Position numbers and translations under genes: made by a program. Of a stretch of DNA of 64,000 nt, positions 7,270-25,798 are shown in pieces. How positions within the stretch are numbered: the stretch's first letter is position 1; every line of letters begins with the position of its first letter. Source of the DNA: a virus (lineage: Duplodnaviria > Caudoviricetes); IMG/VR virus record IMGVR_UViG_3300032236_000727, positions 1,906-65,905 of that record. One strand, written 5' to 3'. The notes beneath the pieces are model-generated. The model did not search any database. It was given only the letters and a program-made list of their open reading frames with translations, and was not told the origin of the DNA.

Positions 7270-7441
7270 TTGACGGATAGGAGGGGCGAGAAGGGGTCTA
7301 GGAGACGAGATGAGTAGAGATGAGGCTACCCCCTTAACTAGTGGACGATCTCTTGTCTTCCAGTTAACACGGGGCGCTCAGAGGCACGCGCACGCGAGGG
7401 GGCGAGGTGGGGGTGTGGCGTCATAATGGTTGAGTCGAGCT

Positions 7442-7466
7442 CCCACCATATCCCACAATCCCCCAC
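7442..7466 (-). promoter_or_regulatory. MraZ-box-like triple repeat
   Basis: GTGGG three times at an exact 10-bp period (CCCAC at 7442, 7452, 7462). Confidence 0.6.
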
Positions 7467-7538
7467 AGTTTAGTCAAGTATTCAGATCGCCAGCAAACCC
7501 AATAGATATAAGGCTGAGAATATATTTGCATAAAGTTG

Positions 7539-7566
7539 TTGACATTGTTTCCAAAAGCTGGATAAT
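7539..7566 (+). promoter_or_regulatory. Host sigma70-type early promoter
   Basis: TTGACA-N16-GATAAT upstream of the first rightward genes. Confidence 0.65.
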
Positions 7567-7655
7567 AGATTCTGTTGTAACGCAGTACGCAAACCCAACC
7601 GCGATAAATAAGGGGGAGCTGGCAGAACCAGTGCTGTTATCCAACACAGCGTATG

Positions 7656-7708
7656 AGGTAGCGACGTGACGCGTCGCCTGATGAGACCAAGCGACAAGGT
7701 CGAAACCT
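7656..7708 (+). ncRNA. Hammerhead ribozyme, type III
   Basis: AGG-UA / stem I GCGACG-UGACG-CGUCGC / CUGAUGA / stem II GACC..GGUC / GAAA-CCU; predicted cleavage after A7660; stem III is short. Confidence 0.8.
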
Positions 7709-7722
7709 AAAGGAGCTATACA

Positions 7723-7914
7723 ATGACACGAGCTGAACTGATCCAAACAATCCTACGCAGTGAGCTGAGCCAGTGGCGTACCATGACTAAAGACCAACTA
7801 CTCGAGTGCCTGCTGATGGAGCGCAGGGAAGTGCTTGACGAGCTGAGCCATGATACACTGACCTATATGTCGGCTGACATTGACGTTGCAGAGGTATGGG
7901 GGCAGGCAATTTAA
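7723..7914 (+). CDS. Small early protein lying between two hammerhead ribozymes
   Basis: 63 aa, RBS AAGGAG at 7710-7715. Confidence 0.75.
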   Translation: MTRAELIQTILRSELSQWRTMTKDQLLECLLMERREVLDELSHDTLTYMSADIDVAEVWGQAI

Positions 7915-7916
7915 CA

Positions 7917-7968
7917 GGTCGAAACCGTGTTGACACGGTCTATACGTTAGGCGTATACTGATGAGACC
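7917..7968 (+). ncRNA. Hammerhead ribozyme, type II
   Basis: GGUC-GAAA / stem III CCGUG-UUGA-CACGG / UC / stem I UAUACG-UUAGG-CGUAUA / CUGAUGA-GACC; predicted cleavage after C7940. Confidence 0.9.
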
Positions 7969-7983
7969 AACATAGGAGGACTT

Positions 7984-8166
7984 ATGATCAACGAACACCA
8001 AAAGAAAATAGCGTACGCTGAGGGCTATCACGCTGGCATGATCAGCGAGCAGTTTGACAATCCGTACGATGACTTTGAACTGCGCGTGCAGTTTAGCTAC
8101 GGCTTTAGAACTGCAACTAACCGCGTCGATTCATTTTATAAACAACATAATCAGGAGTACGCATAA
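7984..8166 (+). CDS. Small early protein with an RMF (ribosome modulation factor)-like pattern
   Basis: AYAEGYHAG...NPY...F.YGF; RBS AGGAGG. Confidence 0.55.
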   Translation: MINEHQKKIAYAEGYHAGMISEQFDNPYDDFELRVQFSYGFRTATNRVDSFYKQHNQEYA

Positions 8167-8468
8167 TGCAAACGATCACAACTAAATACCTGCCAGCAAC
8201 CAATAGCACTGGGACTCGCATCAAAGCTACCAGCTCCAGTGGTATCAGCATGACTTGTGCCTATGAATACGCCATGAGCGGTGAAGAGAACCACGAAGAG
8301 GTTGCCATGCGATTAGCTGAACGCCTTGAATGGGACTATGACTTTGCCGTGGGTGATATGCCCAATGGTTACGTATTCGTACCCGTTGATCACAGTCGCC
8401 TGCTGACAGTAAAGCATCGGATTGACAGCAAGAAAAACAATGCAACCCTTAACGTATGGAATAGCTAA
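8166..8468 (+). CDS. Hypothetical early phage protein
   Basis: 100 aa, translationally coupled (TAATG); the TKYLPATN..GTRIKA pattern recurs in phage early proteins. Confidence 0.7.
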   Translation: MQTITTKYLPATNSTGTRIKATSSSGISMTCAYEYAMSGEENHEEVAMRLAERLEWDYDFAVGDMPNGYVFVPVDHSRLLTVKHRIDSKKNNATLNVWNS

Positions 8469-8469
8469 T

Positions 8470-8775
8470 ATGAGCACAATGTACGAACCAATTGAGATTG
8501 AATACAAAAACCGTAAGCCGTCCAAGGCTGTCATTATGCGCACCTTGGCTGAGTACCTCAAGCAGGGTGCCAAGTCTTTTGACATTCGCTGGGGTGAGAA
8601 CTGGATTGAGATTGACTGGCATCCAAACCAAGAACAATGGTACGGGCGTGGTTGGATCAAGGATATCAGCGGTGACGGCCTAGCCAATGAGCTCAACGAG
8701 ATCCGTAAGCAGGCCATTAAAGAGATCCAGCAGTTTAAGAAAGACCATTTTCAATTTATCCATATTGGAGGGTAG
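8470..8775 (+). CDS. Hypothetical early protein
   Basis: ORF 8422-8775; likely start at ATG 8470, right after the previous stop. Confidence 0.65.
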   Translation: MSTMYEPIEIEYKNRKPSKAVIMRTLAEYLKQGAKSFDIRWGENWIEIDWHPNQEQWYGRGWIKDISGDGLANELNEIRKQAIKEIQQFKKDHFQFIHIGG

Positions 8776-8776
8776 C

Positions 8777-8953
8777 ATGATCAGAGTACAGACTCGGGTG
8801 CAGGACGGCGCACTGTTATTTATCCAAGATGATGGATCTAAAGCTTTACATCCTGAGGATTTTGAGTATAATGGCAGGGAGTATTACTTTTTAGGCGGGT
8901 GTTATTATGACCTTGAGCCTGACTTGATTAAACATATTTGGAGAATAAAATGA
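8777..8953 (+). CDS. Hypothetical early protein
   Basis: RBS GGAGG and ATG at 8777 within ORF 8687-8953. Confidence 0.55.
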   Translation: MIRVQTRVQDGALLFIQDDGSKALHPEDFEYNGREYYFLGGCYYDLEPDLIKHIWRIK

Positions 8954-10173: not shown

Positions 10174-10481
10174 GCCAGTACAGATACATACTTATTGACC
10201 AATTTGGAGGGGCGTGCAGGAAGTTTGTGTCTAAACTGGAAGCTACCCCTTACCTTACCGATGGAATGGTCTTAAAGGCACTACCACGTGCCCCAAAAGA
10301 CAATCCATACCAAGTAGCATTAACCATATTACAGGAGGCATTGTTTTGAAGATCATCGGATTTCTTATCACGCTTGTATCAGTATTCTTAATCAGCGAGG
10401 GCAGTAACGAGCCCAGTGACTATCTATGGCTAGTCATTGGCATTCTGTTTTTGTACCCGCAAATCATCGGAAAGGTCTTTA

Positions 10482-11057
10482 ATGGCAAGCAACAATAACG
10501 ACATCAAAAGCGACTACCTAAAATCCCTGTACGGCATACCAACACTGTCAACCAAGGAGGAGCATAGACTCGCGCAGTTAATTGCAGAGGGGGATGATGA
10601 TGCCTTGGAAAAGCTAGTCACCCATAATCTACGCTTTGTCCCGCACGTTGTCACTAAAATGCCAGCGTGGCAACATAGCAAGATGCCGATGGAGGATATT
10701 CTAGCCATCGGTAACGAGATGCTACTAATTGCCGCCAAACGCTGGAGACCGCACGCTAATGTACCATTCGCTGGGTACGCTCGCCCGTTTATTGAACGCG
10801 GTGTACGTAGGGAGCTGGACAATACTGCAAATATTATTCGACTGCCAGTGAACATTATGGAGGCATTAAAACGCATGAACTACAACGAGAGGGCACTGTT
10901 GCAGGTCTTAGGACGTAAGCCAACAGTTGAAGAGCTAGCGACTATACTGGGCACTACCACAAACAGGGTGCACCAGCTCAGGGGCTATATATCCCGTGAG
11001 CCGATTAGCCTAGACAATATTGAGAACGAAAAACATTTTGAGGAGAGTGAAGAATGA
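10482..11057 (+). CDS. Sigma70-family factor with regions 1.2, 2 and 3 only (no region 4)
   Basis: PTLSTKEEHRLA..GDDDALEKLVTHNLRFV; DILAIGNEMLLIAAKRW; IIRLPV; LGRKPTVEELA; ends shortly after ISLD. Confidence 0.85.
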   Translation: MASNNNDIKSDYLKSLYGIPTLSTKEEHRLAQLIAEGDDDALEKLVTHNLRFVPHVVTKMPAWQHSKMPMEDILAIGNEMLLIAAKRWRPHANVPFAGYARPFIERGVRRELDNTANIIRLPVNIMEALKRMNYNERALLQVLGRKPTVEELATILGTTTNRVHQLRGYISREPISLDNIENEKHFEESEE

Positions 11058-11932: not shown

Positions 11933-11974
11933 TTTTATATGGTGAAATGCCAACACACCATATTTTGCATTATT
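11933..11974 (+). promoter_or_regulatory. Phage middle-class promoter (TGCATTATT) with an upstream TTTTATATGGTGAAA box
   Basis: -10-type motif at 11966-11974; no GGGCG at the 16-nt spacing. Confidence 0.65.
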
Positions 11975-11996
11975 GTATCTGACTAGAAAGGATTAC

Positions 11997-14306
11997 ATGA
12001 GCGACACTAAACCTTATTGCCTACCAGTACAACTCTCCAACATTCCCATTGAGCTACGTAAAGTGGCACGCTGGGTGATGTGGTCTTTTGTACAGGTTGG
12101 CGACGGTGATAATAAGAGATGGGCTAAGATGCCACTCCAGACCAGTGGCAAGTCAGCCTCATCCACCAATCCAGCAACATGGACAGACTTTATCAGCGCC
12201 GAACAGGCGTATAACACCGACAAGTTTGACGGCATTGGCTTTGTGTTTAACGAGGACGATAATTTAGTAGGGATTGACCTTGACGATTGCTTTAATGGCA
12301 CCGAGGGCGTTTTCATAAATGCTGCAATGCAGCAATTAGCCGACAAGGTAGACGGTTATATGGAGATCAGTCCATCGGGCACGGGTGTTAAGATATTCAC
12401 CCGCTCAGAACCGTTTGCATCACACGCGGATCACTCAATTGGCTTTGAGGCTTACTCAAAGGGACGATTCTTTACCGTAACAGGTCAGCATATCTCAGGC
12501 ACTATTCCGCAAGATGCGCAGGACTTGACCAGCATTATCCCTGAGCGCACCATGCGTGCGACAGGTGATGCGTTTGGTGACTACACGCCGCCGCTTGAGG
12601 ACTATGATATTACCCGCGTTGAGAATGAGATCTTGGCGCATATTAACCCTGAGTGTGGCTACCATGAGTGGCTTAAGGTAGGCGCGATTCTACACCACCA
12701 GTTTCACGGTGACGTTGAGGCGTGTGAGGCATGGGATCGTTGGAGCGCAACAGGCTCGTCCTACACCTCAACAGGTGACTACTCGTGCGAGAATAAGTGG
12801 AGGACGTTTAAGGGATCGGGCGCGACACTGCGCTCACTCTTATTCCAAGTCAACCAACAGGCACGCACACAGGCGCTTGCACGTGGTGAGATTATCCTTG
12901 ACAACGGCGCGATGAACCACGCCCGTACGTTCTTGGACAATTACTACACCAGCGAGGAGGGCTATAAGTTAGTGCACTACGCCGATGACTTTTACATCTA
13001 CGTTGGCACTCACTACGAGGTGATTGAGGAGGCGACTATTCGTTCTAAGGTGTACGCCTTTTTGGACAAGTGTAAGAAGAGTGGCAAGCAGGGCGCGTTG
13101 GTGCCGTTTAACCCATCACCAGCGACGGTATCAGGCGCACTGGACGCGATTAAGTCTATCGTTCACTTGCCTAACCACCCGAACACCAAGCCACCGATTT
13201 GGCTAGAGGAGTATGCTGTATCTAAACCATCAGCCTCTAAGCTTGTCAGTCTTAGAAACGGTATCTTTCACCTAGAGGACTCTATACTGATCCCGCACTC
13301 ACTGGGTTTCTTTACACAAAACTCATTGCCCTTTGAGTATGATCAGTCAGCGCAGTGCCCTACATGGATGGGCTTTTTGTCATCCGTATGGCCTGACGAT
13401 CAGGAGTCGATTGACTGCTTGCAGGAAATGTTTGGCTATATTTTATCGGGAGATACGAGACAGCAAAAATTCTTTAACATTATCGGACCTCGCCGATCAG
13501 GCAAGGGGACAATCAACAAGGTGCTAGTCGCGCTGTTAGGTCAGCACAATACAGTGGCACCAGAACTAGGAGAACTCTGTGATACCTTTGGCCTACAACC
13601 TTGGCTTGGTAAGCTGCTCGCTAGTTTTACTGATGCAAGAGCACCTGAGAGAAATAGATCTGCTGTTGTATCTCAACTTTTGCGTATTGTTGGGGGTGAT
13701 ACCATTACTGTCAACAGGAAGAATAAAGAAAGCTGGAACGGCTATTTGCCTACTCGTCTGGTTATTTATTCTAACGAGGTGTTGCAGCTAACAGAGAACT
13801 CTAACGCGTTAACAGGTCGTATGGTTGTGTTAAAGATGACCAAGTCATTCTTTAACAAGGAGGACACCGACCTCGCGCACAAGTTAGAGCAGGAGTTAGG
13901 CGGCATCTTTAACTGGGCTATGGACGGACTCAAGCGTCGTATTGCTAGAGGCGGTCACTTTGTACAGCCAACATCAGGCAAGGAGTATCTTGACCTCATG
14001 GCTGAACTGGGCAACCCTATCGGCACTTTTGTTGAGGATGCACTGGAGTTTGACCCCAAGGCAATTGTCCGCAAGGAGGACGTGTTTGCCTGCTTTAAAC
14101 ACTGGGCGCTTAAGAAGTCAATGAGCCCGGGCACAGAGCAGGCATTCAAGCGCAGATTCTTAGCGGCAACTCAGGAAAACTACGTGATGGCTCAACAGGT
14201 GCAGATCAAGGGCGAGCGATCACAGGTCTACTTGGGTATTAGACTTAACGAGAAGGCACAGAAGTATGTTGACTCGATTGAGACTTTTGACGAGAGTGTA
14301 TTTTGA
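11997..14306 (+). CDS. Primase-polymerase / PriCT-2 / D5-like SF3 helicase fusion
   Basis: GIDLDD and EISPSGTGVKI primase motifs; YHEWLKVG..LH...WDRWS; Walker A GPRRSGKGT. Confidence 0.9.
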   Translation: MSDTKPYCLPVQLSNIPIELRKVARWVMWSFVQVGDGDNKRWAKMPLQTSGKSASSTNPATWTDFISAEQAYNTDKFDGIGFVFNEDDNLVGIDLDDCFNGTEGVFINAAMQQLADKVDGYMEISPSGTGVKIFTRSEPFASHADHSIGFEAYSKGRFFTVTGQHISGTIPQDAQDLTSIIPERTMRATGDAFGDYTPPLEDYDITRVENEILAHINPECGYHEWLKVGAILHHQFHGDVEACEAWDRWSATGSSYTSTGDYSCENKWRTFKGSGATLRSLLFQVNQQARTQALARGEIILDNGAMNHARTFLDNYYTSEEGYKLVHYADDFYIYVGTHYEVIEEATIRSKVYAFLDKCKKSGKQGALVPFNPSPATVSGALDAIKSIVHLPNHPNTKPPIWLEEYAVSKPSASKLVSLRNGIFHLEDSILIPHSLGFFTQNSLPFEYDQSAQCPTWMGFLSSVWPDDQESIDCLQEMFGYILSGDTRQQKFFNIIGPRRSGKGTINKVLVALLGQHNTVAPELGELCDTFGLQPWLGKLLASFTDARAPERNRSAVVSQLLRIVGGDTITVNRKNKESWNGYLPTRLVIYSNEVLQLTENSNALTGRMVVLKMTKSFFNKEDTDLAHKLEQELGGIFNWAMDGLKRRIARGGHFVQPTSGKEYLDLMAELGNPIGTFVEDALEFDPKAIVRKEDVFACFKHWALKKSMSPGTEQAFKRRFLAATQENYVMAQQVQIKGERSQVYLGIRLNEKAQKYVDSIETFDESVF

Positions 14307-22557: not shown

Positions 22558-22632
22558 TCCGCTGTAGCTCAGGGGTAGAGCGTTCCCCTTGTAAGGGAAG
22601 GGCCGTGTGTTCAAATCATACCAGCGGAACCA
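22558..22632 (+). tRNA. tRNA-Thr(UGU)
   Basis: Cloverleaf; anticodon loop CTTGTAA; TTCAAAT T-loop; encoded CCA. Confidence 0.85.
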
Positions 22633-22633
22633 A

Positions 22634-22709
22634 GGGGGTGTAGCTCAGTTGGGAGAGCGTTAGCTTTGCAAGCTAAATGTCGTCGGTTCGATCCCGTCCA
22701 CCTCCACCA
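22634..22709 (+). tRNA. tRNA-Ala(UGC)
   Basis: Cloverleaf; G3:U70 pair; anticodon TGC; GTTCGA; encoded CCA. Confidence 0.92.
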
Positions 22710-25211: not shown

Positions 25212-25279
25212 ATAAGTACGGGTAGACAGGCTGGCCCCGATTGAAGTCCAGTCTTAATGTTAAAAAGGTAATAATCACT

Positions 25280-25798
25280 ATGGCATCAAAATCAATTAAG
25301 ACCAAGTTTGTAACTGGTAAAGTACGTTTCTCTTACGCTAACGTTTTCACACCAGGCGAGACACCTAACGGTACTTTAAAGTACTCTGTTTCTATCCTGA
25401 TTCCAAAATCAGATACAGATACTGTTAATCGCTTTAAGAAAGCATTTGAGGACACCAAGACAGCTAATGCAACTGTATGGGGCGGCTCAATTCCTAAGAC
25501 ACTTAAAGGCGGTTTGCGTGATGGCGACGCTGAGAAGGATGATCCAGCATACGCAGGTCACTACTTTATCAACGCTAGCTCCAATGAAAAACCTGGTATT
25601 GTTGACGCTGATTTAAACCCAATCATTGACACTAGCGAGTTCTACTCTGGTTGCTATGGTCGTGCCTCAATTACATTGTATCCATACGATACAAGTGGCT
25701 CTAAGGGTATCGCTGCTGGTTTGAACAACGTGCAGAAATTAGCTGATGGTGAGAAGTTTGGCGGTTCTACAACCGCAGCAGCAGACTTCGCAGTTTAA
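25280..25798 (+). CDS. DUF2815-family single-stranded DNA-binding protein
   Basis: VRFSYAN, KYSVSILIPK, LRDGD, YSGCYGR, GIAAGLNNVQK..DGE. Confidence 0.88.
   Translation: MASKSIKTKFVTGKVRFSYANVFTPGETPNGTLKYSVSILIPKSDTDTVNRFKKAFEDTKTANATVWGGSIPKTLKGGLRDGDAEKDDPAYAGHYFINASSNEKPGIVDADLNPIIDTSEFYSGCYGRASITLYPYDTSGSKGIAAGLNNVQKLADGEKFGGSTTAAADFAV

Follow-up and report, generated by a model that had tools for sequence, protein, structure and literature searches.

Two predicted hammerhead ribozymes – a type III motif, HH1 (7656–7708), and a type II motif, HH2 (7917–7968) – flank a small gene, open reading frame ORF63, at the point where the rightward gene block of a phage (Caudoviricetes) begins, directly after a predicted early promoter referred to here as P1. 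They lie on the plus strand of a 64-kb window, bases 1906–65905 of the 65,905-base virus record IMGVR_UViG_3300032236_000727, which has direct terminal repeats and a completeness rating of 100%; positions given below without a contig name are those of the window. The twin hammerheads probably process and insulate the early messenger RNAs (mRNAs), the P1 transcript being cut co-transcriptionally into single-gene mRNAs. The locus is a variant within a known class – clustered phage hammerheads around single genes – and its most original point would be the dual promoter/ribozyme coding of HH2, which also contains a second predicted promoter, P2.

A sequence-only reading of this DNA had proposed two hammerheads, one of type III with its cut after 7660 and one of type II with its cut after 7940, and both motifs were confirmed: their cores are complete, and a scanner written for type II and type III topologies, run over both strands of the window, returned HH1 and HH2 as the sole motifs, whereas the mean over 200 mononucleotide shuffles was 0.02 and the maximum 1. 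The coordinates likewise bear out the proposal that the two flank the 63-amino-acid ORF and its ribosome-binding site (RBS), and, as that reading also held, they share an identical stem II (GACC/GGUC) and the 13-mer CTGATGAGACCAA, which has exactly two occurrences, at 7678 and 7958. A contig from run X1 spans 7604–8300 with zero differences, which rules out an artefact of assembly. Contigs of runs X1, X2, X3 and X6 yielded DNA variants only, and no RNA run is among the 20 runs listed as containing the stretch.

HH2, recognised by our scanner and represented in the alignment and covariance model described below, begins 2 nt past the TAA of ORF63 and has its predicted cut after C7940. Three helices – stems I, II and III of 6–7, 4 and 5 bp, with stem II open – surround a conserved core made of CUGAUGA (7958–7964) and GAAA (7921–7924). 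Stem II pairs GGUC (7917–7920) with GACC (7965–7968); the stem III hairpin (7925–7938, CCGUG-UUGA-CACGG) is followed by U7939 and C7940, and the stem I hairpin (7941–7957) reads UAUACG-UUAGG-CGUAUA. Immediately 3′ come AACAU, the AGGAGG RBS of the second early gene, ORF60 (7974–7979), and the ORF60 start codon at 7984. Complementarities of 3–5 bp can be drawn between loop I and the 3′ tail and change together in some relatives, a by-eye reading without statistics.

In HH1 the three helices are arranged around the same conserved core (C3 U4 G5 A6 N7 G8 A9, G12 A13 A14, A15.1–U16.1 and an H17 that is not G), here with stem III open. The core comprises CUGAUGA (7678–7684) and GAAA (7702–7705); the stem I hairpin (7661–7677, GCGACG-UGACG-CGUCGC) has 6–7 bp, and the 4-bp stem II consists of GACC (7685–7688), a 9-nt loop (7689–7697) and GGUC (7698–7701). 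Stem III sets AGGU (7656–7659) against 7705–7708, with CCU at 7706–7708, and the predicted cut falls after A7660, which is H17 and is preceded by U7659.

Comparative evidence comes from related phages. A primase bait gathered 36 related loci with 68–97% primase identity, from which 18 distinct type II copies were aligned (alignment A1) and a covariance model (R1) was built. R1 scores HH2 at 77.9 bits, but HH2 is itself part of the model; besides HH2 it recovered 24 copies, spread over 14 of the 36 loci, which makes 25 clade copies in all. Ten loci carry two copies each, 219–409 nt apart (L125, L128, L130–L134, L137, L143 and L157), and four carry one each (L124, L126, L127 and L155). The primases of these 14 loci are 78–97% identical to that of the window, and the copies all lie on the gene strand, 4.4–6.6 kb upstream of the primase. 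R1 found no copy in the 13 full-length matches with 68–74% primase identity; in the remaining nine of the 36 loci upstream DNA is almost absent.

Within A1 all 278 of 278 cells are paired, a figure that is in part built in, since the scanner demanded paired stems. The same does not hold for compensatory changes at homologous columns, which occur in 9 of 16 pairs (4/6 in stem III and 5/6 in stem I). The covariation score was reached by none of 500 shuffles, and sliding the partners lowers pairing to 17–52%. Covariation among these sequences, preselected for paired stems as they were, supports the helices of HH2. Every copy also keeps the same frame: a stop codon, CA, GGUC ... GACC, AAC or AAA, AGGAG (the RBS) and ATG, with stem II reading GGUC/GACC in all 25 type II copies of the clade. 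The cassettes display complete motifs, covarying stems, a position kept from copy to copy, after a stop codon and before an RBS, and, in part of the family, matches to the promoter consensus.

The gene for a protein beginning MYT has three alternative upstream elements among the relatives: a promoter only (L126), a plain hammerhead (L157) or a hammerhead with an embedded promoter (L128, L131, L133, L134 and L137). With all three, its 5′ untranslated region (UTR) is ACCAA(A)C...AGGAG. Two further observations concern ORF63 homologues next to such cassettes. In a contig from run X6 an HH2-like type II hammerhead stands directly before one; in L143 (3078–3302) the homologue has no stop codon before the hammerhead and reads into it, with a TAG in loop I beyond the predicted cut, which implies that cleavage would leave a non-stop mRNA, unless the contig is in error here.

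Under the favoured reading, the rightward early operon would start at P1 and both hammerheads would self-cleave its transcript during synthesis. Cutting at HH1 would remove a conserved leader of about 88 nt, and cutting at HH2 would detach ORF63, the first cistron, from ORF60, the second. Each downstream product would then carry a 5′-OH and the stem I hairpin just before an A/C-rich spacer and the RBS, while each upstream product would end in the 3′ stem III hairpin with a 2′,3′-cyclic phosphate. With such hairpin-ended products, the cassettes could act as natural insulators that give each small early gene a defined mRNA, whatever is upstream. A hammerhead would in this sense be the post-transcriptional counterpart of a transcription start, setting the mRNA 5′ end just before the RBS, and the interchange of promoter, plain hammerhead and promoter-hammerhead before the MYT gene fits a cassette whose job is to make that end. 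Since HH2 carries P2, ORF60 may be expressed either from a new transcript, beginning at about ACCAAC, or from ribozyme-trimmed read-through. We infer cleavage in vivo, stabilisation by the ends and activity of P2 from this anatomy. Of the circular or nuclease-resistant mRNA that the sequence-only reading had suggested, nuclease resistance suits these hairpin-protected ends; the circle, discussed below, does not hold up to the same degree.

Several observations weigh against this account. HH2 is not recovered by Rfam's Hammerhead_II model (RF02276) at a cut-off of E ≤ 10, and at gathering score Rfam reports no hammerhead anywhere in the window; that silence is weak evidence against HH2, because at the same threshold Rfam also missed all four other phage loci in which our scanner reads arrays of up to 12 type II motifs. 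For each isolated hammerhead, the minimum-free-energy (MFE) fold differs from the hammerhead fold. The invariance of stem II and its flanks is not obviously needed for simple processing, and the notion that hairpin ends slow decay comes from general knowledge of bacterial mRNA turnover. The remaining points concern HH1: its stem III is short (3 bp plus A15.1–U16.1), the Rfam Hammerhead_3 model (RF00008) scores it at 33.6 bits, below the gathering score of 48.5 (E 2e-5 in a 601-base search), the 33 loci of the 36 that the scanner covered hold no type III motif, and two metagenome pattern scans for HH1 homologues returned nothing relevant.

These last points are also what speaks for an inactive or marginal HH1, a recent and possibly decaying acquisition that would leave HH2 to work alone and the P1 leader on the ORF63 mRNA; that L143 and L126 share the leader yet carry no hammerhead there points in the same direction. 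This alternative is nonetheless unlikely, given the complete core, the stem I of 6–7 bp and a possible kissing contact between loop I and loop II (UGACG with CGACA). The only relative of HH1, a contig from run X3, is listed with two changes, A7660C (GUA to GUC) and C7670U in loop I, and both fall at positions where change is allowed (H17 and loop I). In other phages, moreover, 39 of 135 closed-stem-II matches with GACC/GGUC are of type III among the matches listed, commonly directly before an RBS and ATG, and some type III hammerheads there likewise have an open stem III of just 3–4 bp. HH1 is, as far as the sequence comparison goes, a lineage-specific addition, for which conservation with covariation was not found among the relatives; it is plausible as a hammerhead, albeit less secure than HH2.

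Two candidates were set aside in this connection. The first metagenome pattern had no matches and the second had two (L392 and L393), which lie in apparent coding sequence without a hammerhead downstream and are read as chance. A view of HH1 as a decayed type II hammerhead, resting on an R1 match at 7621–7688 (22.3 bits), was rejected because GGCAGAACC belongs to the leader of L143 and L126, where there is no hammerhead.

The predicted promoter within HH2 would add a second layer to the cassette. A scan for sigma70-like promoters gave three 11/12 matches on the plus strand between 7539 and 8872, one of them within HH2: P2 (7930–7959) consists of TTGACA (7930–7935) and TATACT (7954–7959), separated by 18 nt, within the 16–18 nt expected. 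Its −35 hexamer runs from loop III into the first bases of the 3′ strand of stem III, and its −10 hexamer covers the last four bases of stem I and C3–U4 of the core. Transcription from P2 would start near A7966, about 7 nt downstream, at the ACC of stem II, and would yield the ACCAAC leader that the promoter-only modules also have. The combination TTGAC[AG]-18-TATACT occurs in 5 of the 18 distinct clade hammerheads, compared with 1/194 and 0/50 hammerheads of other phage contigs, the lone exception being a contig of the same clade; shuffled hammerheads show no comparable enrichment. Among the promoter-bearing copies stem III keeps its covariation (CCGUG/CACGG, CCACG/CGUGG) and the stem I loops vary. 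No description of a promoter lying inside a hammerhead came up in a limited search of the open-access literature.

It might be argued from P2 that HH2 acts chiefly at the DNA level, as an early promoter with hairpins that forms a recombination joint for gene cassettes, ribozyme activity being secondary or lost. The 11/12 consensus match and the retention of the hexamers in five clade copies would suit such a module, as would the mosaic structure of the region: the genes between cassettes differ among relatives, and a variant co-occurring in run X1 has 7657–7983, the whole HH1–ORF63–HH2 block, exchanged for 536 unrelated letters, with borders exactly at the leader end and the ORF60 start codon that suggest cassette exchange. 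The run X6 contig, with its HH2-like hammerhead before an ORF63 homologue, agrees with this. There is also a parallel in the PeSL cassettes of T4-type phages, which the available text describes as short conserved intergenic hairpins with an early promoter that likewise lie on either side of small variable genes, at the borders of mosaic segments (PMC2839356, PMC4122927). PeSLs, however, are not ribozymes, whereas the hairpins here are stems I and III of a hammerhead. Furthermore, a promoter match is absent from 13 of the 18 distinct hammerheads in the clade, all of which show a full core and covarying stems, and the promoter-bearing copies retain all core nucleotides together with compensatory stem changes. 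Promoter and ribozyme roles are, besides, not mutually exclusive. A mainly DNA-level role is very improbable, and processing by an active ribozyme remains the favoured account.

Whether the excised RNA could also be closed into a ring is a separate question. The sequence-only reading had pointed out that the two ends of the 7661–7940 RNA can rebuild a hammerhead, and folding predictions agree: both the MFE and the centroid fold pair GACC (7685–7688) with GGUC (7917–7920), with an ensemble probability of 0.78 in the 280-nt fold versus 0.008 for the local stem II of HH1, and the predicted fold brings the ends together in a ligatable structure. In a covalent circle, the HH1 3′ half and the HH2 5′ half would pair through stem II – the orphan halves being stem I, CUGAUGA and GACC on one side and GGUC, GAAA, stem III and GUC>p on the other – and the nicked hammerhead would be sealed by the ribozyme or by host RtcB into a translated 280-nt circle. 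The geometry of the ends is correct for this. In addition, stem II matches in all 10 hammerhead pairs of the relatives, where type II/type II pairs leave the excised RNA without a competing local partner, and a predicted loop I–3′ tail pseudoknot, judged against the consensus in the available text of PMC3088659, would remain on the 5′ end.

Other evidence makes a covalent circle quite unlikely. HH1 keeps its own GGUC just 9 nt away. Neither an RtcB (PF01139) nor an RNA ligase (PF09414) domain was matched in the phage genome, although a host enzyme may be available. A single hammerhead is present in 4 of the 14 hammerhead-bearing relatives, and the L126 MYT gene, transcribed from a promoter, would have a 5′-triphosphate end that is not ligatable in this way. 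Nor is the idea of a circular product for clustered phage hammerheads new: it was raised by Perreault et al. in 2011, who state in the text available that circular or spliced products were sought and none detected (data not shown; PMC3088659). As far as the available text of Olzog et al. (2021) goes, the Desulfovibrio vulgaris hammerhead pair gives linear pieces bearing 2′,3′-cyclic phosphate and 5′-OH ends in vivo (PMC8782182).

Matching stem II sequences, which the sequence-only reading had put forward as a check, do exist in the relatives – GGUC/GACC in all 25 clade copies – but do not discriminate, because this stem is invariant in the clade and recurs often in hammerheads of unrelated phages, whichever of the three topologies they have. 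A GACC/GGUC stem II was found in >120 contigs with type II motifs and >120 with closed-stem-II motifs of other phages, both counts being lower bounds, and when stem II was left free in a scan, GAC stood at the start of 20 of 55 type II motifs. There is a further reason for its constancy in that the 3′ strand of stem II overlaps the ACCAAC UTR motif of promoter-only leaders.

The arrays of other phages tell a similar story. Among the matches listed, neighbouring hammerheads have compatible stem II sequences in 62 of 88 pairs in a GACC-biased set and in 11 of 15 in an unbiased set; the incompatible neighbours (26/88 and 4/15) count against circles. Array order is mildly non-random in the GACC-biased set (50/2000 permutations) and not in the unbiased one, and tandem duplication would yield the same pattern of neighbour compatibility. 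Three unrelated phage contigs (L121, L073 and L015) carry 9–12 type II motifs within 4–6 kb, spaced about 250–900 nt apart, and in these the stem II sequences of neighbours match mostly, not always.

End closure was also compared with shuffled sequences. With mononucleotide shuffles, 8 of 9 fragments lie above the median of their shuffles; the nine include the near-duplicates L128/L133 and L131/L137. Synonymous-codon shuffles reach the observed value in 4/40 cases for the window and in 9/40 each for L125, L130 and L157, so that closure is not significantly above this control, which excludes L128, L131, L132 and L137 (ORF start misplaced inside stem I) as well as L133 and L134 (duplicates).

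The same folds would also allow a non-covalent closed loop, in which the ribozyme halves re-associate without ligation, the resulting panhandle shielding the ends and holding the stop codon near the RBS. Such a loop requires no ligase and is compatible with the linear ends observed in vivo elsewhere. A 4-bp helix is weak, though, and the absence of a significant excess over synonymous shuffles, the single-hammerhead relatives and the incompatible neighbours in other phages apply here as they do to the circle; this alternative, too, we consider doubtful and about as improbable as the circle. To our knowledge, a closed-loop mRNA formed from re-associated ribozyme halves has no experimental precedent. 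A broader proposal would be that such cassettes are natural split ribozymes which, through their shared stem II, make closed-loop or circular cistrons, some cassettes being dual-coded as promoter in DNA and ribozyme in RNA. We regard this as speculative and unlikely; if true, one 52-nt element would serve both to initiate new transcripts and to trim read-through RNA, with almost the same 5′ UTR in either case. Linear trimming and insulation remain the preferred explanation.

Trimming of this kind has been proposed before. The sequence-only reading had stated that single hammerheads are known in phages, which understates the literature: as its available text reports, Perreault et al. (2011) described clustered prophage hammerheads that flank single genes and proposed processing into single-gene mRNAs, with in vitro cleavage of three tandem sets, one of which cleaved in Escherichia coli as well (PMC3088659). 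[quoted passage not shown] Set against what that text describes, the upstream element of the present locus lies in a 5′ leader rather than between genes, HH2 holds a sigma70-like promoter, and the frame stop-CA-GGUC...GACC-AAC-RBS is fixed across the clade. The D. vulgaris loc2/loc3 locus is similar in having two hammerheads near phage-like genes, there a type II pair about 310 nt apart, with cleavage shown in vivo and in vitro; the available text of that work concerns activity only – neither function nor circles – and describes no embedded promoter (PMC8782182).

Retrozymes and viroid-like RNAs share with the present locus two cuts and ligatable 5′-OH and 2′,3′-cyclic phosphate ends inside a reconstituted hammerhead; in the accessible accounts their repeated ribozymes are identical, the RNAs are non-coding, and the circles are abundant, demonstrated and either replicate or retrotranspose (PMC7761336, PMC4918200). 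Here, by contrast, the ribozymes are of two topologies with unlike stems I and III, the excised RNA would be an mRNA, and any circle is hypothetical.

Engineered systems provide further points of comparison. In RiboJ-type insulators a self-cleaving ribozyme just before the RBS standardises the 5′ UTR, and in Tornado-type expression flanking ribozymes and RtcB produce RNA circles. Unlike these, the phage arrangement is natural, with its activity predicted.

Phage hammerheads have been known since 2011, and the available text of a 2019 review holds that additional work is still needed to define their purpose (PMC6765202). The present locus offers a test bed of about 430 nt – P1, the leader, HH1, the 63-amino-acid gene and HH2 with P2 – in which one construct suffices for cleavage, mRNA stability, end closure and circularisation. 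Nature also supplies the controls, namely a promoter only, a plain hammerhead and a hammerhead with promoter before the same gene. A promoter within a ribozyme would be unusual dual coding and a possible natural part for synthetic operon design.

The genetic context is that of an early block. Up to 6547 the minus strand encodes the terminase large subunit and other genes, whereas from 7723 on the plus strand carries a series of small ORFs, followed downstream by a sigma-factor-like protein (10437–11057) and a D5/PriCT-type primase-helicase (11973–14306). P1 (7539–7566, plus strand) is a predicted sigma70-like early promoter with TTGACA (7539–7544), 16 nt and GATAAT (7561–7566), 11/12 consensus matches, and a transcription start would lie near 7573; its transcript can reasonably be taken as the first-expressed mRNA of the phage. 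The third 11/12 match of the scan, at 8845–8872 (TTTACA, 16 nt, TATAAT), suggests serial early promoters. The sigma-factor-like protein matches Sigma70 r1.2, r2 and r3, which fits an early phase under host sigma70 followed by a later phase under the phage sigma factor.

The 5′ leader that HH1 would remove (7573–7655) is itself conserved: 7573–7655 is 89% identical to L143 2446–2525, and 7584–7655 is 89% identical to L126 1311–1382. It includes a 5-bp hairpin (7633–7650) that covaries (GCUGU/ACAGC, GCACU/AGUGC, GCAGG/CCUGC) and an invariant AAUAAGGGGGAGCUGGCAGAACCAGU stretch, and it is kept whether or not a hammerhead follows. Homology to L143 and L126 ends at 7655, where the relatives switch to another module. 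In L143 (2525–2605), L126 (1383–1460) and L157 (1530–1590) this consists of a 7-bp hairpin that covaries and has a −35-like TTGTAT or TTGATA in its loop, then TACTAACCAAAC, then the RBS; it could be the ancestor of the promoter-bearing hammerhead.

ORF63 (7723–7914) is preceded by an AAGGAG RBS (7710–7715) 7 nt upstream of its ATG at 7723; its product falls in no Pfam or PHROG family and is 67% identical to the L143 homologue. A pattern search for ORF63 homologues in viral contigs matched 40 stretches, none of which was confirmed, and blastn of 7400–8500 against an annotated phage collection gave no match. ORF60 (7984–8166), downstream of HH2 and P2, has no family above cut-off. Farther along the window, a DUF2815 RNA motif (RF03084) at 25219–25282 scores 76.8 bits, well over its gathering score, and two tRNA genes lie side by side on the plus strand at 22558–22706.

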